Shown in pieces: positions 8,486-54,571 of a DNA stretch of 64,000 bases. The stretch spans positions 2,759,275 to 2,823,274 of the forward strand of contig OW818690.1 in assembly GCA_942493315.1 (NCBI GenBank), written 5' to 3'. Source of the stretch: an uncultured Bacteroidota bacterium. GTDB taxonomy: Bacteria; Bacteroidota; Bacteroidia; Bacteroidales; WCHB1-69. A program made the position numbers and the translations under genes. Numbering within the stretch: position 1 is the stretch's first letter; the number at the start of each line of letters is the position of its first letter. The notes under the pieces were generated by a model, which searched no databases, was not told the origin of the DNA, and worked only from the letters and a program-made list of their open reading frames with translations.

Positions 8486-8601
8486 TTTTTTCGAAAAGTT
8501 TAGTTAAATTAAAGTTATGATTTTCAAATGGTTATATTATTTTTAAATAATTTACAAATATACAAAATTTTTCCAAACGAAAAGCTTAAAATCTATTAAA
8601 T

Positions 8602-8702
8602 AATTAGCAAATGTGATAATTAGCAAATGTGATAATTTGCTAATTTGCTAATTTACTAATTTGCTAATTTGCTAATTTGCTAATTCACTAATTTGCTAAT
8701 TC
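8602..8702. repeat. Octamer tandem array (TGCTAATT x ~9) preceded by 2 copies of a 16-mer containing its reverse complement
   Basis: Read directly. AATTAGCAAATGTGAT occurs twice, followed by TGCTAATT units. Lies 117-217 nt upstream of the gyrA start on the minus strand. Confidence 0.9.
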
Positions 8703-9086: not shown

Positions 9087-9174
9087 ATTATTTTTTATTT
9101 AGATTGAGTTCAAAAAAGTTTGCAAAATTATCAAAAAAAAGTGTGATTTTGATTATTTTTTTAATTTTTTATTT

Positions 9175-9354
9175 GGGCATTCCGGCACCATCCGACACAC
9201 GAGCATACCCTGGTGCCGTCGGGCTTGTTCCGGGGTCCGCTTCGCTCCCGTACTTCGCTGCACTTCACTTAGGATCATTAGTTTCATCTCGCTAACTCAT
9301 CACGGCGTTCGTTCCAGCTCGTACCACCTCCGGTGCCCTCCACATCCCTAATGC
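9175..9354 (+). repeat. GC-rich structured element, copy D (most divergent)
   Basis: Starts GGGCATTCC and ends CCCTAATGC like the other copies. Internal stem CGGCACCA...TGGTGCCG. GC-rich in an AT-rich context. Track ORF 9104-9295 lies inside it and is judged spurious. Confidence 0.75.
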
Positions 9355-9410
9355 AATGAAAATCTGCCCCAAATTTATCCGCTGGGGGGTAATATTTCAT
9401 ATTCTAATAT

Positions 9411-9516: not shown

Positions 9517-9562
9517 TCGAGCATTCGAGCATTCCGAGCATTCGAGCAACCGAGCATTCGAA
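9517..9562. repeat. Short tandem repeat (GAGCATTC-type units)
   Basis: cgagcattcgagcattccgagcattcgagcaaccgagcattcg, read directly. Confidence 0.8.
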
Positions 9563-11437: not shown

Positions 11438-12601
11438 ATGGCCAAAAGGAAAAAAAGAAAAATAAATTTTCTTAAACTTTTTAAGTATATAATCTTAATT
11501 ATCAATATTATATGCGCTATTGGTTTATTGTTTACTTTTATTGGACAATATGTTAAACCCTCTTATTCTACCGTCATTGCATTTTCAGGATTAGGGTTTC
11601 CCTATTTATTAATTGTAAATCTGTTTTTTGTTATTTTTTGGTTGTTTTTTAAAGCCAAACTTTCTATTGTTTCGTTAGTTTTAATTTTGATAAATATTAA
11701 TAACATTGATAAATTTTTTCAATTAAATGCATCACCAAAACCTGAAAATTGTGTAAATTGCATTAAAGTGATGAGTTACAATGTGAAACTTTTCGGTTTA
11801 TATAATTCAAACAATGTTCGTGAAAGAATTATTAATAAAGAGAAAGTATTAAATTTTATTGATCAGGAACAGCCCGATATTTTATGTTTACAGGAGTTTT
11901 TTTACGATAAAAGTGGACATTTGAATTTTAATACTTTGGATACCATTGTTTCAATTCTCAACCTAAAAGATGAAAATTACTACTATACCTATTTCCCTTA
12001 TAATCGAAAAAATGAGTATTTTTATGGCTATGCTACTTTTTCAAAGTACAGAATAGTGAATAGTGGAGTCGTATTACTCCCTGATAGTCACTCAATTGCA
12101 GCCACTTTTATTGATTTTAAATATAAAGGAGATACGATTAGAAACTATAATATCCATTTAGCTTCCAACTACTTTGATCCAGATGATGATCAAACCAGTA
12201 AGCAAATTTTAGCTTATGAACAATACGATTCATCATTAAATTCCAGAGCAAAAGTTGTTTACCGAAAAATGACAAAAGCGATCCATAAAAGGGAAATTCA
12301 AGCTCAAATGATTCAAAAACATATCGCTGAATCACCCTACAAAGTGATCGTTTGCGGAGATTTCAATGATCCTCCTTTTGCCTACACCTATAACCATATC
12401 AGTGATGATTTAAAAGACTCTTTCAGAGAGAGTGGCAAAGGAACCGGAAAAACATATCATGGTGATATCTACCCTAGTTTTAGAATTGATTACATCTTAC
12501 ACAACAGCACTTTTAATTCTTACGGGCATACCATTTACACTGATTTAAAAATCTCTGACCACTACCCTATTTCCTGTAACATTTCGCTTATTAAGAAATA
12601 A
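11438..12601 (+). CDS. Endonuclease/exonuclease/phosphatase (EEP) family membrane protein
   Basis: N-terminal TM segments. EEP motifs (MSYNV..., LCLQEF, CGDFND, SDHYPI). Confidence 0.8.
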   Translation: MAKRKKRKINFLKLFKYIILIINIICAIGLLFTFIGQYVKPSYSTVIAFSGLGFPYLLIVNLFFVIFWLFFKAKLSIVSLVLILININNIDKFFQLNASPKPENCVNCIKVMSYNVKLFGLYNSNNVRERIINKEKVLNFIDQEQPDILCLQEFFYDKSGHLNFNTLDTIVSILNLKDENYYYTYFPYNRKNEYFYGYATFSKYRIVNSGVVLLPDSHSIAATFIDFKYKGDTIRNYNIHLASNYFDPDDDQTSKQILAYEQYDSSLNSRAKVVYRKMTKAIHKREIQAQMIQKHIAESPYKVIVCGDFNDPPFAYTYNHISDDLKDSFRESGKGTGKTYHGDIYPSFRIDYILHNSTFNSYGHTIYTDLKISDHYPISCNISLIKK

Positions 12602-12602
12602 A

Positions 12603-12730
12603 GACTACGGACTACGGACTACGGACTACAGACTACGGACTACAGACTACGGACTACAGACTACGGACTACAGACTACAGACTACGGACTACAGACTACA
12701 GACTACGGACTACAGACTACGGACTACAGA
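12603..12730. repeat. Heptamer tandem array GACTACG/GACTACA (~18 units)
   Basis: Read directly. Starts 2 nt after the stop codon of the EEP gene. Confidence 0.95.
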
Positions 12731-12744
12731 CATTTATCTTTAAT

Positions 12745-12938
12745 CACCTGTCCCCTGTCCCCTGTCACCTGTTACCTGTTACCTGTTACCTGTTACCTGT
12801 CACCTGTTACCTGTTACCTGTTACCTGTTACCTGTCACCTGTCCCCTGTCACCTGTTACCTGTTACCTGTCCCCTGTCACCTGTCCCCTGTCACCTGTTA
12901 CCTGTTACCTGTCCCCTGTTACCTGTCACCTGTCCCCT
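12745..12938. repeat. Heptamer tandem array CCTGTCA/CCTGTTA/CCTGTCC (~27 units)
   Basis: Read directly. Ends 2 nt before the stop codon (12941-12943) of the minus-strand 1404-aa gene. Confidence 0.95.
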
Positions 12939-12940
12939 AT

Positions 12941-15900
12941 TTAGAGCCATTTAACCAAGTTAAAGTCCATATCATGTGGTAATATAGGATGACTAGGAAT
13001 TACTCGAATAGCAGTTTTCCATGATCCTGAAAATGAAGCATTCAAATCTAACAAAAAGTAAGAGATCCCCTTTTCAGTTTTGAGATACGAAATCGGATAT
13101 TTGGTAAATAATTGATTGGTATTTTCAGAAGAGTTCACAATCACCAATTCCATTTTAAGATCATCCGGTTTTAGATTTCCGAGTTTCACTTTTACTTCTA
13201 AATGAGCGCATTCCCCTACCTGAAAAACCTTTTCCCTTTCATTATCAAATTTAATGTTCACCAGCTCTAAATCATCCCAGTTGGAGAGAATTTTATCTTT
13301 CCAATAAATGAGCTGATGTAATTTTTCAAAGTTATTCTCAGACAAAATTTGAGTTCTTGCTTCCAGTTTGTGATAATATTGGGAATAGTAATCCTCCAAT
13401 TGCCTTTTCATTGTAAAATGGGGCGCAATCTGAGCAAAATTTTCTTTCATCATGGTAACCCAATCAGAAGGAATTCCTGATGATGTTCTGTTATAAAATG
13501 TTGTGGCAATTTGATCTTCAATTACTGAGTACAAAACAGCGGCATCCAACTCATCCTGGAAGAAGTTATCTTTATAGGTAATCTCCTCTTCCATGGCCCA
13601 GCCGGCTCCCGGTTTATAACCTTCTGCCCACCATCCATCTAAAACACTGAAGTTTAGTACACCATTCATAATCGCTTTTTCTCCACTGGTTCCCGATGCT
13701 TCAAGTGGTCGGGTCGGATTATTTAACCAGACATCACAACCGGAAATCAGTTTTTTGGCTAAAATCATATCATAATTTTCTAGAAATATAATTTTTCCGA
13801 TAAATTCGGGTTTTCTGGAAAATTCAATAATTTTTTTGATTAAATCCTGCCCCGCTTTATCGTGTGGATGCGCTTTTCCTGCAAAAAGAAATTGGATAGG
13901 TCTTTGAGGATTATTGACAATCGTTTTTAAACGTTCTTCATTTGTAAATAACAAATGTGCTCTTTTATAAGTGGCAAATCTACGGGCAAACCCAATAGTA
14001 AGTGTTTCATTATTAATAGATTTCAAAGTTTTAACGATCAAAGATGGGGATTCGTTCCGCTTTCTCATCTGAATCTCCAACTGTTCTTTTACATGATTTA
14101 ACATTTCAGTTCTCAATTCCTGTTTTATGGTCCAGATCGTTTCCTCTTTTCCGCTATAAATTCCATTCCATTTTTCCGGATAAGTCTGATAATCTATATA
14201 ATGAGATTGAAATTGTTCGGCATGAAACTTTTGCCATTTGGGGTGAGTCCAGGTTGGATAATGTACCCCATTGGTTACATAACCGATATGTAACTCGTTG
14301 GCAAAAAACCCGTTATATTGATTTACAAACATTTCACGAGATACTCTGCCATGAATTTTACTCACTCCATTCATTTCCTGAGATAACTTTAACGCAAGAA
14401 TACTCATAGAGAATTTTTCAAACTGGTTATCCCGATCTTTTCTACCAAATCCCATGAAAGTTTCCCAGGTGATGTTGAGATATGCAATATAATTTACAAA
14501 GTAGGTTCTCATCAGATCTTCACTGAATGCATCATGACCAGCCGGAACAGGAGTGTGCGTTGTAAAAAGTGTAGATGCCCGTACCATCTCAATAGCTGCT
14601 TGTAATGTATGATGATTCGTTTTTACCTCTTCCGATAACCTTTCAATCGCTAAAAAGGCTGCATGCCCTTCGTTCATGTGATAAATGACAGGTTTTTCAT
14701 CTAAAAGTTGCAACATTTTAACACCACCAATACCCAACAAAATCTCTTGTTTTAATCTATTTTCAATATCCCCGCCATATAAAGTGTGGGTTATTTGTCT
14801 ATCCTGCTGATTATTACATTCAAAATCAGTATCCAACAAATACAAAGGAATTCTGCCAACATCAACTTTCCAAATTCGGGCATAAAGCGTTCTTCCCGGC
14901 ATCGGAATTGAAATAAATTTCCAATCACCATTCTCCTCTTTAACAGGTGAAATGGGTAATTTTGAGAAACTTTGGGGCGGATAGAGACTGATTTGATCAC
15001 CCGAATGGCTAATCTGTTGGGTAAAATAACCATATCTGTATAGCAACCCTATACCAATCATATTCACATTTGAGTCACTCGCTTCTTTCAGATAATCACC
15101 CGCTAACATCCCTAACCCTCCTGAAAAGATTTTCAGTTCATTACTAATTCCGAACTCCATACTAAAATAGGCCACTTTTTGCTCCATTCTGGTTCTTGGA
15201 GCATTCAAATAATTTTGAAAATCCTGATATACACGATTCAATTTTTTCAAATAATCAACATTCGAGGCATAAGACTGAATTCTCTCGAATGATAACATTT
15301 GAAGCACATGGGTTGGATTTTCATGATATTGGTACCACAACTCTTTTCCGGCAATTTCAACAAACAATTCTCTGGCTTCAGGGGACCAGCTCCACCACAA
15401 ATTATGAGCAATCTCTTCTAATTTATTTAAGTCAGCTGTTAAATTTGATTTCACTGAAATATGAACCCAATTGGGCTCATTTTGAGGTAATTTTTCAGTA
15501 ATAAAGCTTATTCTCGATACTTTATGTTTAAAAAGATCAAAGCGTAAATCACTCTTTTCTAAAGCAATATGGTAAGCTTCCAAATAATGATTATACAAAT
15601 GACTCCATAGTGCTTGATTAGAAATCTCGGTAGCTTTTTGGTTGATTGCCAGCTTCTCTTCCGCTGACAAACTACAAAAATAACCGATAGAGGAAGCTAA
15701 TTGTTCAACCACTCGTTGATCATTATAATCATCTCTTTCTATGACAATAGCACTATTTTGCTTACCAAAATGGGATAATACCCAGGTTCCAAAACCGGCC
15801 AATGTTGTTGTGATAGTTGGAATACCAAAAGCAATACTTTCTAATGGAGTGTAACCCCATGGTTCATAATAGGATGGAAAAACAGAAAGATCAAAACCCA

Positions 15901-17155
15901 TGAGAAAGTCATAATAAGTCATATTAAAGACTCCATCATTTCCATCTAAATAAACGGGTACAAAAAGGATTTTTATATTGGACTTTGGATCATTATGTAA
16001 CCCGTTATTCAAAATATGATTGATCACAGGATCATGATTAGGATCAGAAAGCAGATGAGTAGCAAAGTCGTTTAAAACAGGAGTTTGAATCGGTTGCGCC
16101 ATTTTCTCCAAAAGATCGTGCCTTGCTCCCATATTTCCGGCAGGAACAGCTATAACGGCAACAATTTGTTTGGTCAGATTTTGTTTTCTGAGTTGAGCTA
16201 AAGATTCAATAAAGAGATCGATCCCCTTATTTTTAAACTCATATCTTCCGCTATTGATTACCAGAAGAGCCTCATGATCAATAGGTTGTTGTAATAGCGT
16301 TTCAGCAACTTTTATTATTTGTTTTCTTGCTTTGGCTCTTTTTTCCAGAAAAATAGCCTCTTCAGGAACTATTTTATTTTCAAAACCATTGATGGTCACA
16401 ACATCCACTGATTTTTTAAAGAACGATTCACATTCCACATTCGTAATTTCGCTTACAGTAGTAAATGAATCAGCATGTACAGCAGACAACATTTCCAATG
16501 AAAATTTGGATTGAATACCAAAATTAGTTGCTAATTCCTGTGGATTATATTCTTTAATTTTATTATAAAGTGGCAAACCGTTCCCTGCAATAGATCTTCC
16601 CAAAGCTGTTGCATGAGTAGTAAAAACTGTAGCAATTTGAGGCACATTTTCCTTTAAATGTAGAATACCGGTACCGGTCATCCATTCATGAAAATGGGCT
16701 ACAATATGGTCATTAGAATGGCAATAATAGTTATAAAAACTTTCAATCACTCTACCGGCAGTATATCCAAAAAGGGCAGGCTCAACATAATCCCACTGAC
16801 CTGAAATAGAATCTAACTTATACGAAAGCCAGAATTGAGTAAAAATTTCATCTTTTTTGGCAAAGAATGGGGTAAAATCAACTAAAAACACGATTGGAGA
16901 GCCTTTGATCTGCCATCTTCCGATTCTTACTTTTAATCCTTCCGTTTCCGCAATATCTTTCCATTTTTTGTATAAGGTAAAATCTTCCACAAATTCTACA
17001 TTCTGTTCCTTAGGTAAATCAGGTCCTATACAAATATATTTTTCAGGAAAATGTTCGGTTGCAGTAACCGCTTTCGTAGATAAAACGGTATAAATTCCGC
17101 CCACTTTATTACACACTTCCCAACTGGTTTCGAATACATAATCAGCTCTCTTCAT
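12941..17155 (-). CDS. Fusion protein: GT3-type glycogen synthase (N-terminal) plus alpha-glucan phosphorylase GT35 (C-terminal)
   Basis: The N-terminus YVFETSWEVCNKVGGIYTVLSTKA is the GT3 glycogen synthase signature. After about residue 570 come NLWWSWSPEARELF (DUF3417-type start of alpha-glucan phosphorylases) and EASGTSGEKAIMNGVLNFSVLDGWW (PLP-lysine region). Single uninterrupted 1404-codon ORF. Confidence 0.85.
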   Translation of the reverse strand: MKRADYVFETSWEVCNKVGGIYTVLSTKAVTATEHFPEKYICIGPDLPKEQNVEFVEDFTLYKKWKDIAETEGLKVRIGRWQIKGSPIVFLVDFTPFFAKKDEIFTQFWLSYKLDSISGQWDYVEPALFGYTAGRVIESFYNYYCHSNDHIVAHFHEWMTGTGILHLKENVPQIATVFTTHATALGRSIAGNGLPLYNKIKEYNPQELATNFGIQSKFSLEMLSAVHADSFTTVSEITNVECESFFKKSVDVVTINGFENKIVPEEAIFLEKRAKARKQIIKVAETLLQQPIDHEALLVINSGRYEFKNKGIDLFIESLAQLRKQNLTKQIVAVIAVPAGNMGARHDLLEKMAQPIQTPVLNDFATHLLSDPNHDPVINHILNNGLHNDPKSNIKILFVPVYLDGNDGVFNMTYYDFLMGFDLSVFPSYYEPWGYTPLESIAFGIPTITTTLAGFGTWVLSHFGKQNSAIVIERDDYNDQRVVEQLASSIGYFCSLSAEEKLAINQKATEISNQALWSHLYNHYLEAYHIALEKSDLRFDLFKHKVSRISFITEKLPQNEPNWVHISVKSNLTADLNKLEEIAHNLWWSWSPEARELFVEIAGKELWYQYHENPTHVLQMLSFERIQSYASNVDYLKKLNRVYQDFQNYLNAPRTRMEQKVAYFSMEFGISNELKIFSGGLGMLAGDYLKEASDSNVNMIGIGLLYRYGYFTQQISHSGDQISLYPPQSFSKLPISPVKEENGDWKFISIPMPGRTLYARIWKVDVGRIPLYLLDTDFECNNQQDRQITHTLYGGDIENRLKQEILLGIGGVKMLQLLDEKPVIYHMNEGHAAFLAIERLSEEVKTNHHTLQAAIEMVRASTLFTTHTPVPAGHDAFSEDLMRTYFVNYIAYLNITWETFMGFGRKDRDNQFEKFSMSILALKLSQEMNGVSKIHGRVSREMFVNQYNGFFANELHIGYVTNGVHYPTWTHPKWQKFHAEQFQSHYIDYQTYPEKWNGIYSGKEETIWTIKQELRTEMLNHVKEQLEIQMRKRNESPSLIVKTLKSINNETLTIGFARRFATYKRAHLLFTNEERLKTIVNNPQRPIQFLFAGKAHPHDKAGQDLIKKIIEFSRKPEFIGKIIFLENYDMILAKKLISGCDVWLNNPTRPLEASGTSGEKAIMNGVLNFSVLDGWWAEGYKPGAGWAMEEEITYKDNFFQDELDAAVLYSVIEDQIATTFYNRTSSGIPSDWVTMMKENFAQIAPHFTMKRQLEDYYSQYYHKLEARTQILSENNFEKLHQLIYWKDKILSNWDDLELVNIKFDNEREKVFQVGECAHLEVKVKLGNLKPDDLKMELVIVNSSENTNQLFTKYPISYLKTEKGISYFLLDLNASFSGSWKTAIRVIPSHPILPHDMDFNLVKWL

Positions 17156-17198
17156 TGAACAACAATTTTTTAGTAAAAAGATTGCAAAGATACGAAAT

Positions 17199-17288
17199 AA
17201 TGTGCTAATGTGCTAATGTGCTAATGTGCTAATGTGTTAATGTGCTAATGTGCTAATGTGCTAATGTGACAATGTGATAATGTAATAA
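17199..17288. repeat. Octamer tandem array AATGTGCT (~11 units)
   Basis: Read directly. Lies 44-133 nt upstream of the start of the glycogen fusion gene (minus strand). Shares the ATTAGCA core with the array upstream of gyrA. Confidence 0.9.
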
Positions 17289-17375
17289 TTTGCTAATTTT
17301 CTCAATGTGCTCTTTAGCTTGCTAATGTAAAAATTAATAAGAGGATACATTATATTGTATTTCTTTATGTAAATT

Positions 17376-23014: not shown

Positions 23015-23591
23015 AAAGAGAATCAACATTGCCATTTTGGAAAATGCTTCCATTGTAAGTGAAGGGATTCAAAGTTTGCTTCAAAAATCACATTTGTATA
23101 TCAAACCGATATGGATCAAAGATATTGACAATTTGAATTTTCATATAGAACGTTTAAAAATTGACATGATTATCATCAATCCAAACTTGGTAATCAATAG
23201 GTTCAAGTTTTTTACACAATTAAAAAACAACAATCCTCAGGTTAAATGGTTAGGGTTAACTTACAATCTGATTGAAAGGGAGATACAGCCTTTGTTTGAT
23301 GATGTTATTCAAATCGATGATGCTTATGAAAATATCACACGTAAGATCGATTATTTCATTGAAAATACGCAAAATGAGGAGACCACTGTATTAACAGATC
23401 GGGAGCAAAATGTATTAAAAGAGATTATCAAGGGATTATCAAATAAAGAGATAGCAGTTCGGTTGAATATCAGTATCCATACTGTAATGAGTCATCGTAA
23501 AAATATATACCAGAAAACCGATATCAAAAGTCAGGCCGGATTAACGGTTTATGCACTGACACACAATATTGTTTCGATAGAATCTCTATAG
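23007..23591 (+). CDS. LuxR-family transcription regulator with an atypical receiver-like N-terminal domain
   Basis: C-terminal LuxR HTH (LTDREQNVLKEIIKGLSNKEIAVRLNISIHTVMSHRKNIYQK). The ATG overlaps the upstream stop (ATGGATAA). The N-terminal domain lacks the usual DD pocket and phospho-Asp (ILEN, IIINPN). Confidence 0.75.
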   Translation: MDKKRINIAILENASIVSEGIQSLLQKSHLYIKPIWIKDIDNLNFHIERLKIDMIIINPNLVINRFKFFTQLKNNNPQVKWLGLTYNLIEREIQPLFDDVIQIDDAYENITRKIDYFIENTQNEETTVLTDREQNVLKEIIKGLSNKEIAVRLNISIHTVMSHRKNIYQKTDIKSQAGLTVYALTHNIVSIESL

Positions 23592-23622
23592 GGCTAAGGG
23601 CGAAGGGCGAAGGGCGAAGGGG
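23591..23622. repeat. Heptamer tandem repeat AGGGCGA/AGGGCTA
   Basis: gggctaagggcgaagggcgaagggcgaaggggg, starting right after the LuxR-family gene stop. Confidence 0.85.
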
Positions 23623-23749: not shown

Positions 23750-25081
23750 ATGAATAAGAATCAAATTAGTATTGAACTTAAAAACATAAGATCTGTTAGA
23801 GATGCAAATATTGTTTTTGATGGAATTACTGTAATTACTGGAGAAAACGGCAGTGGAAAGAGTACAATATCAAAATTGACTTATCATCTTTTTCGTACAT
23901 CTATTGAATTTGAAAAGATAGTTGAGGATAAGCTACAGGATGAATTAAAAAGAATTTATAGAAGTTTAGATCAATTATCTAGGGAATTAGAGTATTTTTT
24001 GGATAAAGATGAATATATTAAAATTAGAAATTCATTTAGAAATTTTTATAGATATGAAAATCAACTTAGTCTTTTTGAAGAAGACAATTCGATTTTTTCA
24101 GCAATTGACGCATTAATAAACATTTTTACAAATGAAAATATTAATTTAAAAAATAACAAACAATTATCTCAGCGATTGAAAAGAATTAAAATTATTATAA
24201 GTAATTCGATTCCCACAGATGATTATGAAAAAATAGAGATTCCAGAACTTTTAATTGTACTAAAAAACTTTATTAAGGATCACATCCAACAGACCACAAA
24301 TTATAAAGAAAATAGACCTTTATCAATTTTAAATGAAAAATTGGCTGAAGCTTTCTATGACTCTTCAATAACCAATTCATTTAATATATATGAATATGGA
24401 GTTCCAATAATTGATAGAGATAAAAATAAATTACTGCCAATACATTCAATCCAAAAAGTAGCATATATAGATACTCCAATGATAATTGGAATTGATTTCT
24501 TAGCAGAAAGGGCTCATTGGGATGATATTAATGAATTAATTTCTAATAAAAAAACATATAAATCTGACTCTGAATTAGACTCAATTTTTAAGAATGAAAT
24601 TTTGAAAGGAGATGTTAGCTATAATGAAAATGAAATTTCAAGTCAAACTTTTATTTATAAAAGAGATGATGGAAAGGATTTTGATTTGTTAGAATGTGCC
24701 ACTGGCTTAAAATCATTTAGTTTACTCCAATTGCTATTTAAAAATGGATTTCTCAACAATCAAACTTTACTCATCATTGATGAACCAGAAGTTCATTTAC
24801 ATCCACAATGGATTGTTGAGTATGCAAGACTTATCGTTCTATTTAATAAATATTTGGGAGTAAAGTTTCTCATAGCTAGTCATAATCCAGATATGATTAG
24901 TGCAATAAAATATATTTCAAAAAAAGAAAATTCTTGTAAAGATTTAAACTTTTATTTAGCTACCAAATATAAAAAAACATATACATATAATTACAAAAAT
25001 CTCGGAATAGAGATTGATGAAATTTTCGCTTCATTTAATATTGCTTTAGAAAGAATTGATTTTTATGGACAATCTGAATAA
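23750..25081 (+). CDS. SMC/ABC-type (AAA_15/AAA_21-like) ATPase with a coiled-coil insertion
   Basis: Walker A GENGSGKST. Signature-like ATGLKSFSLLQ. Walker B LLIIDEPEVHLHP. H-loop region IASHNPD. A helical insert of about 250 aa separates the two halves of the ATPase head. Confidence 0.8.
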   Translation: MNKNQISIELKNIRSVRDANIVFDGITVITGENGSGKSTISKLTYHLFRTSIEFEKIVEDKLQDELKRIYRSLDQLSRELEYFLDKDEYIKIRNSFRNFYRYENQLSLFEEDNSIFSAIDALINIFTNENINLKNNKQLSQRLKRIKIIISNSIPTDDYEKIEIPELLIVLKNFIKDHIQQTTNYKENRPLSILNEKLAEAFYDSSITNSFNIYEYGVPIIDRDKNKLLPIHSIQKVAYIDTPMIIGIDFLAERAHWDDINELISNKKTYKSDSELDSIFKNEILKGDVSYNENEISSQTFIYKRDDGKDFDLLECATGLKSFSLLQLLFKNGFLNNQTLLIIDEPEVHLHPQWIVEYARLIVLFNKYLGVKFLIASHNPDMISAIKYISKKENSCKDLNFYLATKYKKTYTYNYKNLGIEIDEIFASFNIALERIDFYGQSE

Positions 25082-25571
25082 CTTAACTTACTGTTCTACA
25101 ACAACTAATAATCACAAAATTGCATCTATTTGTCCTCAATGTGTTCAGAAAATTAATGCTGTATGTATCAAGGATGGTGCTAAACATACTTGTTTTACTA
25201 ATGAAGTTTGTCTTAATATAGATGATTTTGAAACCTTTTTAGCTCAACATGAAAAAAGAGATAAACAAAAAACCATGGATTTCTCTTTTGGAGTTAATAT
25301 CGAAAATAGAAATGAGCAAAAGATGATTTTAGTTGAACTTAGACTAAATTATACTAATTGGCGAAATATTAGCAAAAAAGAACTTGATGATAAAATTAAT
25401 CATTCAAAAGTTATTCTCGGGCATTCTCCTATTATTTCGAATCAATATTATTTCGTTTTCAAATCAGATTTAAAACAGCAAGCTCATAATCACTTAAGAA
25501 GACTATATTTAAATCGAAATTTTGTTTTTGGAGTTGATCTTAATGAATTGAAAAATAATTTTTTTCAATAA
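25065..25571 (+). CDS. Small Cys-cluster protein of unknown function, translationally coupled to the ATPase
   Basis: ATG 25065 overlaps the ATPase stop by 17 nt. N-terminal CPQC-x7-C-x8-C cluster. I recognise no domain. Possible weak D...ExR (MDFSF...ILVELR) nuclease-like pattern. Confidence 0.6.
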   Translation: MDNLNNLTYCSTTTNNHKIASICPQCVQKINAVCIKDGAKHTCFTNEVCLNIDDFETFLAQHEKRDKQKTMDFSFGVNIENRNEQKMILVELRLNYTNWRNISKKELDDKINHSKVILGHSPIISNQYYFVFKSDLKQQAHNHLRRLYLNRNFVFGVDLNELKNNFFQ

Positions 25572-28338: not shown

Positions 28339-28460
28339 TCAGCTTTCAGCTATCAGTTTTCAGCTATCAGTTTTCAGCTTTCAGTTTTCTAATGGTCAAC
28401 CAAATTCAGGCATTGACACATTATTCATTATTCATTATTCATTATTCATTATTCATTAAT
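28339..28460. repeat. Two heptamer arrays: CAGCTTT/CAGCTAT/CAGTTTT (28339-28389) and TTATTCA (28420-28460)
   Basis: Read directly. The CAGCTAT/CAGTTTT units recur at 54609-54635, and the reverse complement of TTATTCA recurs at 29070-29100. Confidence 0.9.
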
Positions 28461-28492
28461 TTATTATCTTTGCAATCTAAAAATTAGAAATT

Positions 28493-28909: not shown

Positions 28910-28931
28910 TGACCTAATAGGGCAAAATCCA

Positions 28932-29012
28932 CCAACCTTTTATTAGATTAGCTATTCAGAGCTCAGTCGGCCCAATAGTCACGCATTTCCATTGTATTAG
29001 GGCGAAGGTCAG
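28932..29012 (-). repeat. Truncated junction fragment of the composite repeat (end of the AT module plus end of the GC-rich element)
   Basis: caaccttttattagattagc...gagctcagtcgg...gtattagggcgaagg aligns with 38716-38786 (junction of M7 and GC copy C). Confidence 0.6.
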
Positions 29013-29018
29013 ATAAAA

Positions 29019-29102
29019 AGACTACGGACTACGGACTACGGACTACGGACTACGGACAACGGACGAAAAATGAATAATGAAAAATGAATAATGGGAAATG
29101 AG
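29019..29102. repeat. Heptamer arrays GACTACG (x6, ending GGACAAC) followed by TGAATAA/TGAAAAA units
   Basis: Read directly. Same GACTACG unit as at 12603-12730. Confidence 0.9.
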
Positions 29103-33711: not shown

Positions 33712-35085
33712 ATGATTATAAATAGTATCATCAGGTTTTTTCATACAGATAATGAACTAACCATCAATAAATTAGGCAAATTTACTAAAAAACATATTGC
33801 ATCGCAATTGGAAGGTGGTCAAATTTTTCCACCTAAGGTTATTTTAGAGTTTGAATATAATGAAGATATCAATGGGTTTTCGTTTGTTGATAAAATATCT
33901 CAATGGGAGTCACTTCGGTTATTAGATGCTGATGATCAAGTTACTAAATGGGTAAAAGAATTAAAAAACGCCATTCAAAATAACAAAAGTGTTAGTTTTG
34001 AGAATTTTGGAACATTCTATATGAATCCAACCGGGGTTATTTGTTTTGATTCTGATATCATCAAGGAATTGAACAGTGAATATTACGGTATGGCACCGGT
34101 TCCGTTGAATAAGACGGGAGACGGGAGACAGGAGACGGGAGACGGGGGAATTCAGATTACGGACAACGGACTACAGACTATGGACGAGGGTATTCAGACT
34201 GCGGACAACGGACTACAGACTACGGACGAGGGTATTCAGACTGCGGACAACGGACTACAGACTACGGACGGGGGACTGGAGACTGGAGACGAGGGAGTAC
34301 AGACTGCGGACAACGGACTACAGACTACGGACGAGAGACTGGAGACGGGAGACGGGAGACAGGAGATTGGAGACGGGAGACAGGAGACGGGAGACGGGAG
34401 ACAGGAGACGGGAGACGGGAGACGTGAGATTGAGGACGACGGACTACAGACTACGGAAGAGGTTGAGGAAGAAGAAAAAGAAGAGGTTTTTATGCCGGTT
34501 AAAAAGAGAAAAAATAGATGGTTGGAGAGGCTCATTTTTATTTTGATTATTTTGGGATCAATCGGATTGGTTGCTTATCTTTTTAGATCTGATATAAAAA
34601 AATTCTATGATCAAAAATTTAATAAAAATAATCAGGTGGAAACCCCTACCCCTCAAGCTGTTGCGGTTGATACAAATATGGATGAATATATTGACTATGA
34701 AGCAGATTCTTTAGAAAATTCAAACTCTGCTACTAATACTTCAGAAGAGATTACTAATCCAACAGTTTCTAAAGTTGAGACAACAAAAAATTCAAATAAT
34801 TCCAATACAACAACAAAACCTGTTCAAATTGAAACAAATCAAAATGGAAGTAAAGATATTTCCTCCATTTCATTTGAAAAAGGGAAATTTTATGTTATTG
34901 CAGGTAGCTTTGGTAAAAAAAGTGATGCGATACAACATATCAAAGACAAAAAGTTAACACAATACAATCCTGTTCTTCTGGTTGGAGATTCAAGAGTCAG
35001 AGTTTGTATTGGAACCTATAAAACAGAAGCTGAAGCAACTGCTTTTGCTAAAAAAATTGATCAATCCTTTTGGGTATTAAAATAG
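33712..35085 (+). CDS. HU-like N-terminal domain / TM / SPOR-domain protein with an internal repeat-encoded low-complexity region
   Basis: C-terminal SPOR-like domain (GKFYVIAGSFGKKSDAIQHI...VRVCIGTYKTEAEATAFAKKI). Central TM segment (LIFILIILGSIGLVAYL). The Gly/Asp/Thr/Gln-rich region is encoded by heptamer repeats. Confidence 0.7.
   Translation: MIINSIIRFFHTDNELTINKLGKFTKKHIASQLEGGQIFPPKVILEFEYNEDINGFSFVDKISQWESLRLLDADDQVTKWVKELKNAIQNNKSVSFENFGTFYMNPTGVICFDSDIIKELNSEYYGMAPVPLNKTGDGRQETGDGGIQITDNGLQTMDEGIQTADNGLQTTDEGIQTADNGLQTTDGGLETGDEGVQTADNGLQTTDERLETGDGRQEIGDGRQETGDGRQETGDGRREIEDDGLQTTEEVEEEEKEEVFMPVKKRKNRWLERLIFILIILGSIGLVAYLFRSDIKKFYDQKFNKNNQVETPTPQAVAVDTNMDEYIDYEADSLENSNSATNTSEEITNPTVSKVETTKNSNNSNTTTKPVQIETNQNGSKDISSISFEKGKFYVIAGSFGKKSDAIQHIKDKKLTQYNPVLLVGDSRVRVCIGTYKTEAEATAFAKKIDQSFWVLK
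34113..34456 (+). repeat. Heptamer tandem repeats (GGAGACG, GGACTAC, AGACTAC and others) embedded in frame within a CDS
   Basis: Read directly. The units match the intergenic arrays at 12603 and 29019. The translation shows 7-aa periodic strings (GDGRQET, DNGLQTT). Confidence 0.9.
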
Positions 35086-37200: not shown

Positions 37201-38758
37201 CCGACGGAGCACTCATTGGGTAATCTAATAAATGATGGGTAAAAAATTTAGTAAATTGTTTATTCATTGAAAGATATGAAATCTACTGATTTTGCATCCT
37301 TGTTTCACCAACCTTTTAATAGATTACCTAAATGAAAACCCAAATTTGAAATCTATCACCCATTTGACAACTCCAAAATCAAACCAAATTCTAAATTTAG
37401 CTCCTCTAAAATTAATCCAAATCTTCCTAAAATCAATCAGACTTTAGCTACAAACAAACCAATATTACCATTTTTAAATTAAATGGTTTTTTAATAACTT
37501 ATAAGATTATTTATTGTTTATACAAACATTTTGCAATGTTTGTAGTTTTCTTTCCCATTGTTGATTGAGATCGATTTTTCAATCATAGCAGATGAGGGAT
37601 CTAATCTGAATTTGATCTGTTCAAAGATCATATACCAATACAGATAGTTTTGCAGATAACTGGAGGATACTCCATGAAACCGATCCATAAATGCAATTAA
37701 CTTCAGGTATCTGCTTTCAATCGTTTTTGTATCATAATATTGGTTACATCCTTTCACTTTCTGATCCTTTTTTCTAATAAAGTAGCTGATCTTTCTCTTT
37801 CCTGCAAATTGTTTAAGAATCGGATGATCACTCAAACATAGTTTTTTTACTTTGTTTAGTTTTTTTCCAAGATGGTTCTTTAATTCTTCTTCTTGTAATG
37901 CACCTTGTTGAATAATTGTGATTTCAAAATGGGATATTCTGTCACCAATAGCCACTAAAGAAAGAGGTTTGTATTCCCCATTTCGGATACTTTCTGCTTT
38001 TCTATTACAGGCAGGATTCGTTATCTTTCCTTTTTGTCCTATTTGTTTAGCTTTGGCTCCTTGACCCTTTCGGGAGAAAGGTTCTGAAATATCAATCATT
38101 TCCGTTATTCCTCGATATTTATCCGGGACATATTCACCCAGAGAGGATATAATTTTATGTCTCCAATCAAATGAAGTTTGGTTAGAGATATCCAATGCAT
38201 CAGAACAATCTTTGATTCCTGTTCCTGATAACATCAACAAGAAGTAGGATTGTAGTTTCTCCTTCTTTTTGATGTAGGAAATTGTAGTACCTGAGAACTC
38301 ATTAAAGCTTCTGCCACAACTCTTACAAAGGAAATATTGAACTCCTTTTTTCTTACCGTTTAGAATAAAATGTGATTTTCCACATTTAGGACAAACTCTG
38401 ACTTGCTTCTCACTGATATACTTACATATAGAAGCCAAAGGATTAACAAAACTCTTTTTTTGGGGGGTAACTTCAGCAGATGGTGAGGGTTGAACTGAAG
38501 TAGGGTCAATGGTTTGCTTAGAGGATTGGGGTAGATCATTCATAGTATTTTGAGTTTAGTGAGTACTTGATATTGATGCAAATATAAACAAAAAAATGAA
38601 CGAATTGCAACAAAAATAAAAAAAAATCTGCTAATCTAATAAAAGATTGGTGCTATTGTGATGCAAAATCACAAGACTATAAAAAAGTGTTTAAAATCAA
38701 AAATATACCGAAAAACTCACCCATCTTTTAATAGATTAGCCAATTAAAGCTCCGTCGG
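37201..38758 (-). mobile_element. IS-like unit: IS1595-like transposase gene bracketed by inverted AT-hairpin modules of about 130 bp (M6 37201-37328, M7 38630-38758)
   Basis: The outermost 10 bp are perfectly inverted (CCGACGGAGC ... GCTCCGTCGG), followed by an extended imperfect inverted repeat through ATTGG-TAATCTA-TAAA-GATGGGT. No target-site duplication was recognised. Confidence 0.55.
37518..38543 (-). CDS. IS1595-family-like DDE transposase with an N-terminal zinc ribbon
   Basis: CPKCG...x18...CKSCG zinc ribbon. C-terminal HGVSSSYLQNYLYWYMIFE resembles the IS1595 (ISXO2-like) conserved end. A TATATTTG -7 box lies on the minus strand at 38579-38586. Confidence 0.6.
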   Translation of the reverse strand: MNDLPQSSKQTIDPTSVQPSPSAEVTPQKKSFVNPLASICKYISEKQVRVCPKCGKSHFILNGKKKGVQYFLCKSCGRSFNEFSGTTISYIKKKEKLQSYFLLMLSGTGIKDCSDALDISNQTSFDWRHKIISSLGEYVPDKYRGITEMIDISEPFSRKGQGAKAKQIGQKGKITNPACNRKAESIRNGEYKPLSLVAIGDRISHFEITIIQQGALQEEELKNHLGKKLNKVKKLCLSDHPILKQFAGKRKISYFIRKKDQKVKGCNQYYDTKTIESRYLKLIAFMDRFHGVSSSYLQNYLYWYMIFEQIKFRLDPSSAMIEKSISINNGKENYKHCKMFV

Positions 38759-38771
38759 ACAGTAAACCCCC

Positions 38772-38981
38772 GCATTAGGGCGAAGGCCAGGTACCCCGCA
38801 AGTTGAGCTGCTTAGGGCCTGACGGATCGGGCAGAGCGACGAAGGAGCTACTGCCCGGCCGATCAGACCCTTGCAGCGAAACGAGGAGTACAGGCCGGAG
38901 ACCGACCCTTTGGCCAGCGACGCGACTATTATTCATATTGGTCTGGATTTTTATTGAGCGCAGCCAAAGGGGAATGCCCTA
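38772..38981 (-). repeat. GC-rich structured element, copy C (reverse orientation)
   Basis: The reverse complement aligns along its length with copy A (47564-47770). It has the same CCTTTGGC...GCCAAAGG stem and a compensated CGGGCAG...CTGCCCG hairpin. Confidence 0.85.
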
Positions 38982-38999
38982 AATAACTAAATTTGAAAT

Positions 39000-40067
39000 C
39001 TATCTTGGAATATAATCCCTATAGTGTTTAAATCCTAAATGTGATGTTTTGGATCCCTTAACTAATGAATCTTCACTGACTGCAGAAATATTATAATATT
39101 TTACCGCATTATATCTTGCTCCTAATATGCCATAAGCTGTTTTAAATTCATCGTCAGTAGGACAAACCATGTTGGTATATTCCAAATGTTCCTGAACTAT
39201 ACTTGATGAAGGTTGGTTAACAATCAGATAGTTGAACAAACTTTTAGATGCCCCCCAAACCTGAATCGAAATACATGACGTTCCTAATTTATATCGATCT
39301 ACTGATGGATTTGGCTGTATTTGTAAGGCTATAATATCAAAAATGGCAGATGGTTTATATTCTTTGTTAATCTCTCCATTTGCAACATTTTTTTGTGTTA
39401 AAAAAGTCTGATTTGTAATATCTCTTTTTACAGTTCCATATTTAGTTATCTCTCCTGTCAATTTTGAAACCTCAAAATAATAAAAATATTGGTAGATTTC
39501 ATATCCAAATGCTTTTGGATTGTGCGTGAAAATGATATTTGATTTATTACCAATTAAATTCAATCCATTATTAATTGGAATAAATGGCGCAGTAATATTT
39601 ATTGAATCTATTAAATCTGTGGTACCTGTCACTTCTCTTCCTGTTTCTTTATTAACTATCTTGATGGAATAAGATGCTTTTCTATTCAATCTTTCACTTG
39701 TATAATATAGTAATTGTTTAGGATTTGCAAAAATTCCGGGATTTTTTGGAACTGCTGTTGTTGTATCTAAAGTTATGATTCTATTGGTTGATTCTCCATT
39801 AATAAACTCCTCTAAAGTAACATTTACTTTATCAAAATAGTATAAATTGGTCCAGTCAGCAGCTGCAATGATGCTATTTCCTTCTGTCTGAAATCCCTTA
39901 TAAACTTTTATGTATTGGATGGAATCATTTGGATTTAATAATCCATATACCACAGTCACATCTTTATAAGGTGCATTCAATGAAAATTCATCATTACAAG
40001 ATATTAGTAATAAGGATAATAGAGCTATTAAAGCTAATAATTTTGTTTTTTTCATATTATTTTTCAA
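39000..40067 (-). CDS. Lipoprotein of unknown function (possibly DUF4249-like)
   Basis: Lipoprotein signal LLLISC. Overlaps the upstream beta-barrel gene by 11 nt, consistent with one operon. Confidence 0.45.
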   Translation of the reverse strand: MKNNMKKTKLLALIALLSLLLISCNDEFSLNAPYKDVTVVYGLLNPNDSIQYIKVYKGFQTEGNSIIAAADWTNLYYFDKVNVTLEEFINGESTNRIITLDTTTAVPKNPGIFANPKQLLYYTSERLNRKASYSIKIVNKETGREVTGTTDLIDSINITAPFIPINNGLNLIGNKSNIIFTHNPKAFGYEIYQYFYYFEVSKLTGEITKYGTVKRDITNQTFLTQKNVANGEINKEYKPSAIFDIIALQIQPNPSVDRYKLGTSCISIQVWGASKSLFNYLIVNQPSSSIVQEHLEYTNMVCPTDDEFKTAYGILGARYNAVKYYNISAVSEDSLVKGSKTSHLGFKHYRDYIPR

Positions 40068-40818
40068 TTCTTACCCAACGAGGACCAATTCTTTTTCCAC
40101 TCTTATCATTTTTTTCGTTGTATGTATATTTGTCATTAAATGTATATAAAATTCTAAATGTCAAGACATTATTATATGGTGATCTGACTGATGTTCCTCC
40201 ATTATTATTGGCATAAAATATTTTATCTTTTCCTATTGGGACTATGGAATATTGATATCTAAAGTTAAATTTTAATCCTTTATAAACCGGAACTTTTACA
40301 TCTAAAAGGAAGCTCCATTCATTTCTATTATATCTACCGGATTGTAAATCTGCAAATAATCTTTGACCAAATACTGTTTCTTGGTAATTCACTAACCTTG
40401 CCCATGATGCTCCAATTCCAAATGCCCATCCAGTATATGGATCTTCATAATGAAAAACAATAGGAACTTCAACATAATCCAACCTTAATTTATAGTAAAT
40501 ATCATTTCTAAAAGGATATTCCATATCAAATAAAAGTGTATCATCTAATGGTTTGGCATCTACATTATTGGAATAATTTTTTTGAAATGCCCCTTTTTGA
40601 GTAAATAGCAGCTCCATGGTTACAAAAAATCGCTGTTTTTTATCTAAAGAAATCATAACTGAGGGACCCACGTTAAAACCCAATTTATTATAACCATTAA
40701 CTTCATCTCCCTCAACTTGTGTAATATTTGCACCGGCAGTGAAGCCTCCGATGAAAATCTGAGACTTCCCAACTACTAGAATTGAGGCAAATAAAAATAC
40801 AAATAATAGCTTTTTCAT
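40057..40818 (-). CDS. Outer-membrane beta-barrel (porin-family/PorT-like) protein
   Basis: Signal peptide MKKLLFVFLFASILVVGKSQ. Alternating beta-strand pattern with aromatic girdle residues. Confidence 0.55.
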   Translation of the reverse strand: MKKLLFVFLFASILVVGKSQIFIGGFTAGANITQVEGDEVNGYNKLGFNVGPSVMISLDKKQRFFVTMELLFTQKGAFQKNYSNNVDAKPLDDTLLFDMEYPFRNDIYYKLRLDYVEVPIVFHYEDPYTGWAFGIGASWARLVNYQETVFGQRLFADLQSGRYNRNEWSFLLDVKVPVYKGLKFNFRYQYSIVPIGKDKIFYANNNGGTSVRSPYNNVLTFRILYTFNDKYTYNEKNDKSGKRIGPRWVRIEK

Positions 40819-40857
40819 ATTCTTTTTTTAGAGTATGCAAAAATACATTTTTTTTTG

Positions 40858-40865
40858 TAATTTTG
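40858..40865 (+). promoter_or_regulatory. -7 promoter box TAATTTTG driving the riboswitch leader
   Basis: TAnnTTTG located 3 nt before the proposed P1 stem of the riboswitch. Confidence 0.45.
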
Positions 40866-40868
40866 CCA

Positions 40869-41050
40869 TGATTTTCAACAAGGGAATCGGGTGAAATTCC
40901 TGAACAGTTCCCGCTGCTGTAAGTCTCATTAAGTTCTTAGGATTTAGCCACTGTTTTTATTCCAAAAATGGGAAGGCCCTCAAGAGAGACAAGTCAGAAA
41001 ACCTATTGTAAATCAAGCATTAAGGCTTCGGGAAAAAGCTGAAACGAACC
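40869..41050 (+). promoter_or_regulatory. Cobalamin (B12) riboswitch
   Basis: AAGGGAATCGGGTGAAATTCCTGAACAGTTCCCGCTGCTGTAAG matches the conserved GGGAA..GGTGAAA.TCC...CCCGC.GCTGTAA core. Also GCCACTG...GGGAAGGC, a B12-box-like AAGTCAGAAAACCT, and a P1 candidate TGATTT (40869-40874) / AAATCA (41010-41015). Confidence 0.75.
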
Positions 41051-41119
41051 GTTTGTTCCAACTCTTTCCGATTCCAAATTTATTCATCTAACCAATCCAT
41101 TTTGGTTACTAAAAACGAA

Positions 41120-42196: not shown

Positions 42197-42238
42197 TGAT
42201 TTGGATTTATATTTAAAACTTAAAATGGATGCATAAAA

Positions 42239-43435: not shown

Positions 43436-43563
43436 TAAAACTCTAAGAACTGAATAATAACGTATGAAAATTTAAGAAATTGTATGCAATATTATTTTTT
43501 TAAATTCAATAAAATTATTGAATTTTGGGATTTATAAATATCAAAATTATTATTTAAATTAAT

Positions 43564-43700
43564 CGACAGAGCTATTTACCCCTATTCTAATAAATGATGG
43601 ATGAAAATTTTGTATCTATTTTATATTCAAACACATACAAAATTTCATTTTTTCTATCGAAACAGTATCAACCTTTTATTAGAATATAAAATATTGACGC
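43564..43700 (+). repeat. AT-rich hairpin module, copy M1
   Basis: CGACAGAGC...ATTCTAATAAATGATGG...CAACCTTTTATTAGAATATAAAATATTGACGCA. Near-identical to M2. Confidence 0.85.
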
Positions 43701-43791
43701 ACTTCGGTACATTTTTTTGTATTTTTCGTCATGAGTTCCGGATTTAAAAGTCGAGTAATTTTTCAATTTTGAACATTTGCAAATTATTCCC

Positions 43792-43799
43792 TATTTTTG
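43792..43799 (+). promoter_or_regulatory. -7 promoter box TATTTTTG upstream of the helicase gene
   Basis: TAnnTTTG followed by CA. It overlaps the TTG used as the start in the ORF track, which argues for a later start codon. Confidence 0.4.
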
Positions 43800-43847
43800 C
43801 ATTCCAAATTGCCACTAATTCATCATATTTCATCAAATTTAACTTTT

Positions 43848-46001: not shown

Positions 46002-46006
46002 ATACG

Positions 46007-46144
46007 CGACGAAGCACTACACCCCTATTCCAATAAATGATGGGTAAAAATATTGTATCTATTTTATATTCAAACACATACAAAATTTAATTTTTTCAAT
46101 CGAAACAGTATCAACCTTTTATTAGAATATAAAATATTAACGCA
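46007..46144 (+). repeat. AT-rich hairpin module, copy M2
   Basis: Direct repeat of M1 beginning 6 nt after the helicase stop. Confidence 0.85.
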
Positions 46145-54567: not shown

Positions 54568-54571
54568 TTCT

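Follow-up and report, generated by a model that had tools for sequence, protein, structure and literature searches.

Tandem heptamer arrays with a shared set of units in the spacer of a convergent gene pair and in other intergenic regions of an uncultured Bacteroidota bacterium

A stretch of 64,000 nt from the genome of an uncultured Bacteroidota bacterium (Bacteroidales, WCHB1-69; contig OW818690.1 of assembly GCA_942493315.1, positions 2,759,275 to 2,823,274) was analyzed, which is called the window in the following and from whose first letter all positions are counted. The analysis centered on a spacer of 339 bp between two convergent genes, 96% of which consists of two arrays of tandem heptamers. 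These arrays and the other heptamer and octamer arrays of the window belong to a known class, the heptanucleotide repeats that have been named long simple sequence repeats (LSSR) or short tandemly repeated repetitive (STRR) sequences, and they occur in a lineage in which this class has been documented only briefly. With a probability of roughly 60%, we regard the arrays as microsatellites of this class that have grown by slippage and recombination, that take their units from a shared pool, and that have no gene-specific function. Slippage together with recombination is the most likely mechanism, and neutrality is the most likely state of the arrays.

The spacer was delimited with Tandem Repeats Finder (TRF) and by direct reading (Table 1). 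Both confirmed a preliminary description of this DNA, according to which two arrays of about 18 and 27 heptamers nearly fill the spacer and lie within 2 nt of the stop codons. The stop codon of the plus-strand gene lies 1 nt before array 1, and that of the minus-strand gene 2 nt after array 2. All 18 units of array 1 are perfect, and they comprise 9 GACTACG and 9 GACTACA units and no other variant, with the last letters in the order G G G A G A G A G A A G A A G A G A. Array 2 comprises 13 CCTGTTA, 7 CCTGTCC and 7 CCTGTCA units, likewise without any other variant, and there were 0 singleton mutations in the 45 units of both arrays. A period of 14 nt fits array 1 better than a period of 7 nt (94% versus 88%), and array 2 has a higher-order period of 42 nt with a match of 91%. 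To judge from the letters, the presence of few unit variants together with higher-order periods that fit better than period 7 is the signature of a recent block duplication. The glycogen synthase gene runs into array 2, which reads (GACAGGK/AACAGGT)n on the strand of that gene. The two arrays had been called unrelated. This holds only in part, because GACAGGK of array 2 is one substitution away from the GACAGGA units of an array within a coding sequence (CDS) of the same window. The gene downstream of array 2 (12941-17155, minus strand) is a single open reading frame (ORF) of 1404 aa, in which a glycogen synthase domain and a glycogen phosphorylase domain are joined, and it has the same length in a relative (locus L006).

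In agreement with the preliminary description, a hairpin terminator was not found in the spacer, and the number of intrinsic terminator-like sites (GC-rich hairpin plus T run) in 12300-13300 was 0. Inverted repeats were also not found at the main locus, i.e., there was no palindromic unit and there were no terminal inverted repeats of the type seen in repetitive extragenic palindromic (REP) sequences, bacterial interspersed mosaic elements (BIMEs) or miniature inverted-repeat transposable elements. The region did not fold better than shuffled sequences on either strand (z +1.25 and +0.88). Pairing between the RNAs of arrays 1 and 2 was ruled out, because the best register comprises only 4 of 7 positions (ACAG/CUGU) and folding was no better than in shuffles. 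An array of clustered regularly interspaced short palindromic repeats was also ruled out, as the units follow one another head-to-tail without spacers. The central stretch of 15 nt was weighed as a relic of the ancestral spacer, for which its likeness to L005 extends over too few positions.

The same convergent gene pair is kept in three relatives at a nucleotide identity of 69–76%, and none of them has an array at this site. The orthologous spacers have lengths of 8 nt (L006), about 7 nt (L132) and 33 nt (the contig encoding P0002). Therefore, the arrays of the main locus are derived, and they adjoin the stop codons because the ancestral spacers were tiny. A sister species with 88.6% identity is represented by four contigs (L001–L004), which all encode the identical protein P0001 and in which an array begins at the same base. 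L001 contains 8 GACTWCR units, which are followed by a different downstream gene (FGE-sulfatase), and L003 and L004 end within a GACTACG array. L002 has four AGTCRGC units and then four or more GAAAAAT units at this junction. The flanks of L002 and L003 have only 1 difference in 2284 nt (99.96% identity), and yet different units start from the same junction. These differences between the four contigs show that copy number as well as unit identity change at the main junction, and that the array is a breakpoint of gene order. A scan of metagenomes with a 25-mer of the conserved gene-end junction for further alleles of the main locus gave 0 matches.

The census of the window yielded 13 arrays of period 7 and 3 arrays of period 8, compared to 0.03 and 0.07 per dinucleotide shuffle, respectively (30 shuffles). 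Arrays with a period of 5, 6, 9 or 10 were not found in the window at the same TRF score. In 165 kb of relatives, which had been chosen without reference to heptamers, 45 arrays of period 7, 16 of period 8, 16 of period 14 and 2 of period 9 were present, and none had a period of 6 or less. In the window, 17 of 18 arrays are intergenic, and the sole CDS array lies in a disordered linker. The arrays thus have the features of LSSR, with units of 7 or 8 nt (within the range of 5–11 nt), an excess over composition and a mostly intergenic location. Further sites at which units recur, octamers included, had been listed before, and the units were present at all of them (Table 1). The proposed sharing of units between loci clearly exceeds what composition would produce: 12 identical unit pairs were found when rotation and strand were allowed, 0.75 were expected, and none of 2000 base-shuffled sets reached 12. 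GACTACR occurs at 4 loci, and CAGCTAT/CAGTTTT, GAAAAAT, TTTTGGG and CATTATT occur at 2 loci each; the degenerate (YGTAGTC) array at 54652-54700 is the complement of GACTACR. On the same strand, a C-rich, G-poor array (TTACCTS, TCTTMAC, TTCACTC or ACTCTTC) often comes after GACTACR. The statement that arrays fill the intergenic space applies to the main spacer, but in the whole window they account for only 1055 of 9259 intergenic nt (11%), next to 1143 nt of GC-rich elements and 2367 nt of arrays of 53/54-bp repeats. The (GGGTTTT)n and (TTTTAGG)n arrays, which have 9–30 copies (window 54276-54340; L126 8399-8540; L139 2750-2958), resemble telomere repeats and are potential G-quadruplex formers.

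Table 1. Repeat arrays and GC-rich elements of the window, together with the two genes that flank the main locus
Feature	Position	Strand	Remarks
GC-rich structured element	9162-9390	+	
Octamer array (TAATTTGC) x12.6	8601-8701		upstream of gyrA
Octamer array (TCGAGCAT) x5.5	9517-9561		127 nt 3' of a GC-rich element
Upstream convergent gene, Exo_endo_phos family hydrolase, 387 aa	11438-12601	+	stop codon TAA at 12599-12601
Array 1, (GACTACR) x18 + GAC	12603-12731	+ (sense to upstream gene)	TRF and direct reading
Non-repeat stretch between the arrays, 15 nt, ATTTATCTTTAATCA	12732-12746		direct reading
Array 2, (CCTGTYM) x27 on the plus strand	12747-12938 (full units to 12935)	-	TRF and direct reading
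Downstream convergent gene, glycogen synthase-phosphorylase fusion, 1404 aa	12941-17155	-	stop codon 12941-12943
Octamer array (TAATGTGC) x14	17198-17311		upstream of glycogen synthase gene, abuts promoter box
(AGGGCGA) x4.6	23590-23621	+	overlaps stop codon of GerE-family gene
CAGCTAT/CAGTTTT 14-mer array	28339-28389		
(CATTATT) x6.9	28419-28467		abuts TAnnTTTG-type promoter box of next gene
(GACTACG) x6.4, then directly (GAAAAAT/GAATAAT) x5.3	29020-29101	+	29020-29064 and 29065-29101
49 heptamer units in GAC register	34113-34457	+	inside CDS
GC-rich structured element, subfamily A	38746-38992	-	
GC-rich structured element, subfamily A	47551-47798	+	
(TTTTGGG) x9.3	54276-54340	+	5' of forward GC-rich element
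GC-rich structured element, subfamily A	54377-54591	+	
3' tail of element: GGGCTCA x2.6, GGGCGAA-like units, CAGCTAT/CAGTTTT 14-mer, degenerate (YGTAGTC) x6	54573-54700	+	14-mer at 54603-54635
GC-rich structured element, subfamily B	57682-57885	-	ends in short hairpin
(AAAAGAC) x5, (GAAAAAT) x5, (AAAACCC) x3	57877-57969	+	5' arm of reverse-oriented element, mirrors 54276-54340; previously listed site at 57948-57969

Differences between relatives in copy number, unit and presence were also observed at other loci. Between the orthologs of the GerE-family gene and the lysine aminomutase gene, L077 of the Bacteroidales metagenome-assembled genome (MAG) AMR_MDS_3861 (71–84% identity) carries eight GACTACR units that face two GACWACA units in inverted orientation. 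The equivalent junction of the window has AGGGCGA x4.6 and a two-gene AAA_15 cassette. In another locus of the same MAG (L060), a spacer of 124 nt between co-directional genes consists wholly of GACTACR x12 and TCTTMAC x4. The copy number of an orthologous GGGTYTT array is 3 in the window and 8–9 in L145 (87% identity), and the inner arrays as well as the element subfamily are swapped. L006 has (TAATAAGC) x4.5 and a GC-rich element at the site that is orthologous to 17198-17311. Synteny breaks exactly at GC-rich elements or arrays when 38746-47798 of the window is compared with L136 and L145, and also in L001. In L145, two elements connect the ortholog of 57948-62952 with that of 39001-43518. 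In L136, one element connects the orthologs of 46026-47545 and 39001-42324, and the gene for the UvrD-like helicase is missing. The octamer array at 9517-9561 has an equal length in L001 (11% divergence), but with substitutions. Because its length was kept while substitutions accumulated, it is an old, decaying array. From their sequences, long perfect arrays look young and short imperfect arrays look old.

The cassette at 23750-25571 encodes an AAA_15/AAA_21 ATPase and a protein of 171 aa without a Pfam match, and its flanking genes are direct convergent neighbours in L077. It is bounded by the AGGGCGA array and may be an inserted defence-type module.

According to the reading that we prefer, the arrays would have arisen in a spacer with an ancestral length of 7–33 bp. 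They would have grown by replication slippage and by unequal recombination of blocks of one to six units, which would generate the periods of 14, 21 and 42 nt. Turnover would comprise changes of copy number and wholesale replacement via recombination with other arrays. The shared vocabulary would stem from a lineage-wide pool of units, which would partly be carried by, or seeded from, a dispersed GC-rich structured element of about 200 nt. The effects would be structural only, in that convergent genes are pushed apart, breakpoints of rearrangement and gene content are marked, a protein linker becomes variable, and short-read assemblies are broken. It might be argued that arrays are mere artefacts of assembly or sequencing, as short-read contigs of relatives end within them. 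However, the array was traversed in L001 as well as in the window, the same arrays are present in independent assemblies and in isolate genomes, and the internal patterns of variants are ordered, and the probability of an artefact is therefore negligible.

The GC-rich elements form a family with two subfamilies, and the window contains five of these intergenic islands of about 200–250 nt, which extend from GGGCRTTCC to CGCCCTAAYGC. Scanning of metagenomes with a conserved 23-mer, followed by nhmmer, led to 40 copies, of which 35 are unique, and which are located in the window, L006, L124 and L126–L148. The structure calculated with RNAalifold has 29 pairs, with 95% paired versus 81% in shuffles, and covariation amounted to 100 doubly changed cells versus 34 in shuffles and at most 24 in slid controls. 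The element at 9162-9390 has about 97% identity in L001, compared to 88.6% for the flanking genes. About a third of the copies have a terminal hairpin and a T run and are thus terminator-like. An Rfam match to the elements was found neither at the gathering threshold (whole window) nor at E<=1 (54200-58100). These elements probably represent a structured RNA with many copies that has not been described before; they might also be elements of single-stranded DNA (ssDNA).

A tie of some arrays to these elements had been proposed, and it is supported. TTTTGGG is the 5' terminus of the element itself, and AGGGCGA is the complement of its 3' terminus. Among the 35 unique elements from several genomes, all 8 cases of (GGGTTTT)n were on the 5' side and forward. 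All 3 cases of the (GACTACR)n complement that passed a strict test were on the 3' side, and there were additional cases with degenerate units. T-rich units are found 5' of the element and their complements 3', and the array units of the window are also found in L006, L124 and L126–L148. Of 109 arrays with period 7 or 8, 66 are within 200 nt of an element, compared to 8.4% of the bases; this figure is biased upward because the loci were picked for containing an element. In the window, the truncated end of an element (about 28925-29010) precedes the GACTACG array at 29020. At the non-orthologous locus L124, the stop codon of a gene is followed by (GACTACA)8, a spacer, (TTACCTC)13 and a reverse-oriented element. 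This order mirrors the main locus with its (GACTACR)18, spacer and (TTACCTG-type)27; the element is missing there in the window.

These results raise the alternative that the arrays are the arms of a composite dispersed unit with a GC-rich core, which would spread by transposition or gene conversion. The main locus would then be a "solo arm", i.e., a 3' tail of the form (GGTRACA)n-(YGTAGTC)n. The polar syntax around the elements, the 66 arrays in their vicinity, the truncated element end directly in front of the array at 29020, and a core that is more conserved than the neighbouring genes and has a covariation-supported structure all fit this alternative, and so does L124, whose order of element, (GAGGTAA)13, (TGTAGTC)8 and stop codon of a convergent gene is that of the main locus on the minus strand. 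However, neither an element nor a relic of it was found at the main locus or in L001–L004, and terminal repeats, target duplications and a defined outer boundary were all not found. In addition, 6 of the 9 array-bearing intergenic regions of the window are without an intact element, the association within the window alone has a p of only about 0.06, the selection of loci affects the count of 66, and GACTACR arrays occur in many phyla, at whose loci the element was not looked for. Taken together, a composite unit is a serious but unlikely explanation. The fuller version, in which the arrays are ordered arms around a structured RNA or ssDNA element of about 200 nt, the main locus is a solo arm, and the composite or its arms move or are copied and drive rearrangements, appears slightly less likely still. 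If it were true, the composite would be a new architecture of bacterial repeats that is closer to a short interspersed nuclear element with microsatellite tails than to REP or STRR.

The wider distribution of the GACTACR unit was analyzed with (GACTACR)x4 in the species collection of GTDB. More than 117 stretches were found, which is a lower bound, in at least ten phyla with a GC content from low to very high, including Acidobacteriota, Actinomycetota, Chloroflexota, Planctomycetota, Verrucomicrobiota, Cyanobacteria, Pseudomonadota, Bacillota and many Bacteroidota, among them isolates of Pedobacter. Some genomes have 4–5 matches each, for example a Blastocatellia MAG, Ca. Onstottus arcticum, a Clostridia MAG and the Bacteroidaceae MAG52. 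The flanks of the matches contain about 160 further heptamer arrays of other units. A scan of viral contigs for (GACTACR)x4 gave 1 match. The matches across the phyla may simply reflect the size of the collection.

Several observations weigh against slippage-grown, neutral arrays. Slippage as such was not seen, and the difference between L002 and L003 is a replacement, not a stepwise change. Contigs from different metagenomes with 99.6–100% identity had no length difference in any array, and thus, the turnover rate is not extreme. The characterization of the arrays as hypervariable loci consequently holds only in part: L002/L003, L001, L077 and L145 differ, but lengths are invariant at 99.6% identity and the array at 9517-9561 was kept over 11% divergence. 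Local slippage alone does not explain an array order around the element that is conserved across genomes. An intact element is present in only 3 of the 9 intergenic regions of the window that bear arrays, so that the element is not the sole source of the arrays. Finally, GACTACR in this lineage is in sense orientation and starts 1–8 nt past the stop codon at six non-orthologous loci, and across the phyla 43 sense cases were counted versus 22, a weak bias that rests on crude ORF calling. Pure neutrality fails to predict the sense orientation of GACTACR after stop codons.

The orientation of GACTACR, with 6–7 sense loci in the lineage and the 43 versus 22 cases across phyla, would be expected if the arrays had a role at the RNA level, as modules of 3' untranslated regions or leaders, as sites where Rho or an RNA-binding protein (S1, Csp, CsrA) could land, or as insulators between convergent transcripts. 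The arrays are also unstructured and begin right after stop codons, and the spacer in L060 that consists wholly of arrays is internal to an operon. Rho utilization (rut) sites are C-rich and G-poor, and the C-rich, G-poor array after GACTACR resembles such a site. A role of RNA-binding proteins has been proposed for the TAACTGA repeats of other bacteria (MacGregor, PMC4679880). Nevertheless, a role at the RNA level seems improbable. Co-directional intergenic arrays had no C/G or purine bias between the strands (43 with C>G versus 40 with G>C, p = 0.83), the complement in the transcript of the convergent minus-strand gene would be G-rich, a spacer of 7–8 nt without an array suffices in relatives, units and copy numbers are freely swapped at one site, and crude ORF calling underlies the counts of orientations. 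The missing strand bias also led to the rejection of Rho/rut as a general rule and, together with the missing hairpin, argues against the terminator role that had been considered in the preliminary description.

A gene for a Y1_Tnp (IS200-like) transposase is present at 55006-55476 within a block (54701-57621) between elements and arrays. It has 4.3 copies of a 54-bp repeat on its left side and 40.3 tandem copies of a 53-bp repeat on its right side (55485-57621, 92% matches), which are inverted relative to the left side. The 53-bp repeat contains the hairpin CGCTCC-GCT-GGAGCG. The block resembles a REP-associated tyrosine transposase (RAYT) with its REP sequences, and the tandem array is unusually long. 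The whole region 54276-57969 is mirror-symmetric, with (TTTTGGG)n, a forward element, heptamers, the Y1 gene plus the 53-bp array, heptamers, a reverse element, heptamers and (AAAACCC)n.

The position of the Y1 gene inside this symmetric block, and the strict preference for units of 7 or 8 nt, which suggests a mechanistic ruler, would be compatible with a dedicated enzyme that builds the arrays, either by Y1 (IS200-like) nicking or by templated addition of heptamers by a reverse transcriptase or telomerase-like enzyme. However, a tblastn search with the Y1 protein matched only 1 of 148 loci, at a distance of 8.5 kb from an element, and 22 of the 23 loci of relatives with elements and arrays do not have the gene, which speaks against the former suggestion that the Y1 transposase generates the arrays. 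With Pfam, 46 of the window's 48 predicted genes were annotated, and no gene for a reverse transcriptase, a primase-polymerase or a similar enzyme was among them. Moreover, the coexistence of many different units is not expected from a single template, and the same preference for unit length exists across phyla in what is cited from the survey of Mrazek 2007 (via PMC4679880). A dedicated enzyme is therefore very doubtful.

The sole array within a CDS (34113-34457) has 49 heptamers in one register, all of which start with GAC or are near variants thereof (GACGGGA, GACAGGA, GACTACR, GACAACG and others), and a higher-order repeat of 42 nt. The gene (33712-35085) encodes an HU-CCDC81/SPOR protein of 457 aa (P0121), and the array encodes a disordered linker between the HU-like domain and the transmembrane/SPOR part, with repeats of 7 or 14 aa such as DNGLQTT and GDGRQET. 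In homologs, the two ends of the protein are retained but the acidic linker is quite different, and the heptamer-coded repeats are shared only with the closest homologs, P0122 and partly P0123. Units of the GAC type are tolerated in a CDS because they have no stop codon in any sense frame. GACTACR arrays within ORFs were in sense orientation in 28 cases and in antisense orientation in 0 cases.

A change of one unit (7 nt) in this array would shift the frame of the HU/SPOR gene, which could therefore, on sequence grounds, be phase-variable. Two further arrays (28419-28467 and 17198-17311) abut promoter boxes, the first of which is of the TAnnTTTG consensus type. It might thus be suspected that the arrays are contingency loci, i.e., switches for phase variation of neighbour genes based on simple repeats. 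The main arrays do not fit this notion, since they lie between two stop codons and a change of their length alters neither gene; in addition, they are flanked by housekeeping genes. The CDS array is degenerate and has many unit variants, and the homolog P0122 is intact with length differences in frame-keeping multiples. Contigs of close strains (99.6–100%) had no length variation, and a unit was replaced between contigs with 99.96% identity. For the arrays as a whole, a role as contingency loci is highly improbable.

The other genes of the window include housekeeping genes, i.e., gyrA, the glycogen synthase fusion, lysine aminomutase, a UvrD-like helicase and glycosyltransferases, as well as genes for Por_Secre_tail proteins. 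The nearest named homologs are proteins of Bacteroidales or Lentimicrobiaceae MAGs with about 50% identity. A cobalamin riboswitch (RF00174, 84 bits) is present at 40841-41024 upstream of a DUF5074 gene.

The arrays have several consequences. With one array per 4 kb, they break short-read assemblies, and 3 of the 4 contigs of the sister species end within an array. They mark sites at which gene order and gene content differ between relatives, and they supply a variable linker in the HU/SPOR protein. The strict preference for 7 or 8 nt and a vocabulary of units that is conserved at about 70% nucleotide identity make this a tractable system for the question whether the expansion of heptamers is a property of the replisome (Mrazek) or spreads with a mobile structured element. 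As it stands, the arrays represent a known class of repeats in a new lineage and no new mechanism.

The STRR sequences of heterocystous cyanobacteria, which were reportedly described by Mazel et al. in 1990, are tandem heptamers with the units CCCCAGT, TTGGTCA and CAACAGT. STRR sequences are also referred to in PMC4692102. The arrays of the window are alike in being tandem heptamers of few units at many dispersed, mostly intergenic sites with up to tens of copies. They differ in that the host belongs to the Bacteroidota and is not a heterocystous cyanobacterium, that the units are other than those of STRR, that octamers occur as well, and that the order around the GC-rich element is polar. REP/BIME sequences with RAYT are also extragenic, have many copies and often lie just after stop codons, and the window contains a Y1 gene with inverted 53/54-bp repeats. 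However, REPs are palindromes of 20–40 nt, whereas the heptamer arrays are without an inverted repeat or hairpin and are unlinked to Y1 in relatives.

According to the preliminary description, no equivalent was known for Bacteroidota. This is not the case, because TAACTGA repeats have been described in Beggiatoaceae, cyanobacteria and five Bacteroidetes, with a suggested role in rearrangement, and the latter have assemblages of heptamer direct repeats, relatives with short repeat-free spacers, and contigs that end in arrays (MacGregor 2015, PMC4679880). The likeness to the window is considerable, as it comprises the intergenic heptamer arrays in Bacteroidetes, "other heptamer direct repeats", repeat-free relatives and contigs ending in arrays. 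The AAACTGA/TAGCTGA units on the minus strand of the window (28339-28389 and 54603-54635) are each one mismatch away from TAACTGA, and an exact tandem of TAACTGA was not found. The TAACTGA repeats are mostly just upstream of start codons, forward and in 2–6 copies, in contrast to the main arrays between stop codons with 18 and 27 copies, and GACTACR was not found in the supplementary text of that study.

In Xanthomonas and Nostoc, each genome carries one heptamer at over 100 intergenic sites, and related species differ extensively in its length and sequence (Rehm et al. 2015, PMC4692102). These GGGAATC/GGGGAYT repeats share with the arrays of the window the intergenic location near ORF ends and the variation between species, and the (GGGTTTT)n arrays are also potential G-quadruplex formers. 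However, those genomes have a single G-rich unit, whereas the window has at least 12 units, most of which are not G-rich. As far as the survey of Mrazek 2007 on LSSR with units of 5–11 nt in non-host-adapted bacteria is cited in later work (PMC4679880, PMC4692102), no class of long simple repeats was more abundant than the heptanucleotides in the majority of the genomes, and polymerase slippage was proposed as the cause. The dominance of heptanucleotides, the intergenic enrichment, lengths beyond chance and slippage as the proposed mechanism are common to the cited LSSR results and the arrays analyzed here. In the same cited part of the survey, the ten genomes richest in repeats of 5–11 nt held no Bacteroidetes, and neither a vocabulary of several units that is conserved between genomes nor an order around another element was described. 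The recurrence of a small set of units in this genome and its relatives and, above all, their ordered association with the GC-rich structured element may be the part that is new.

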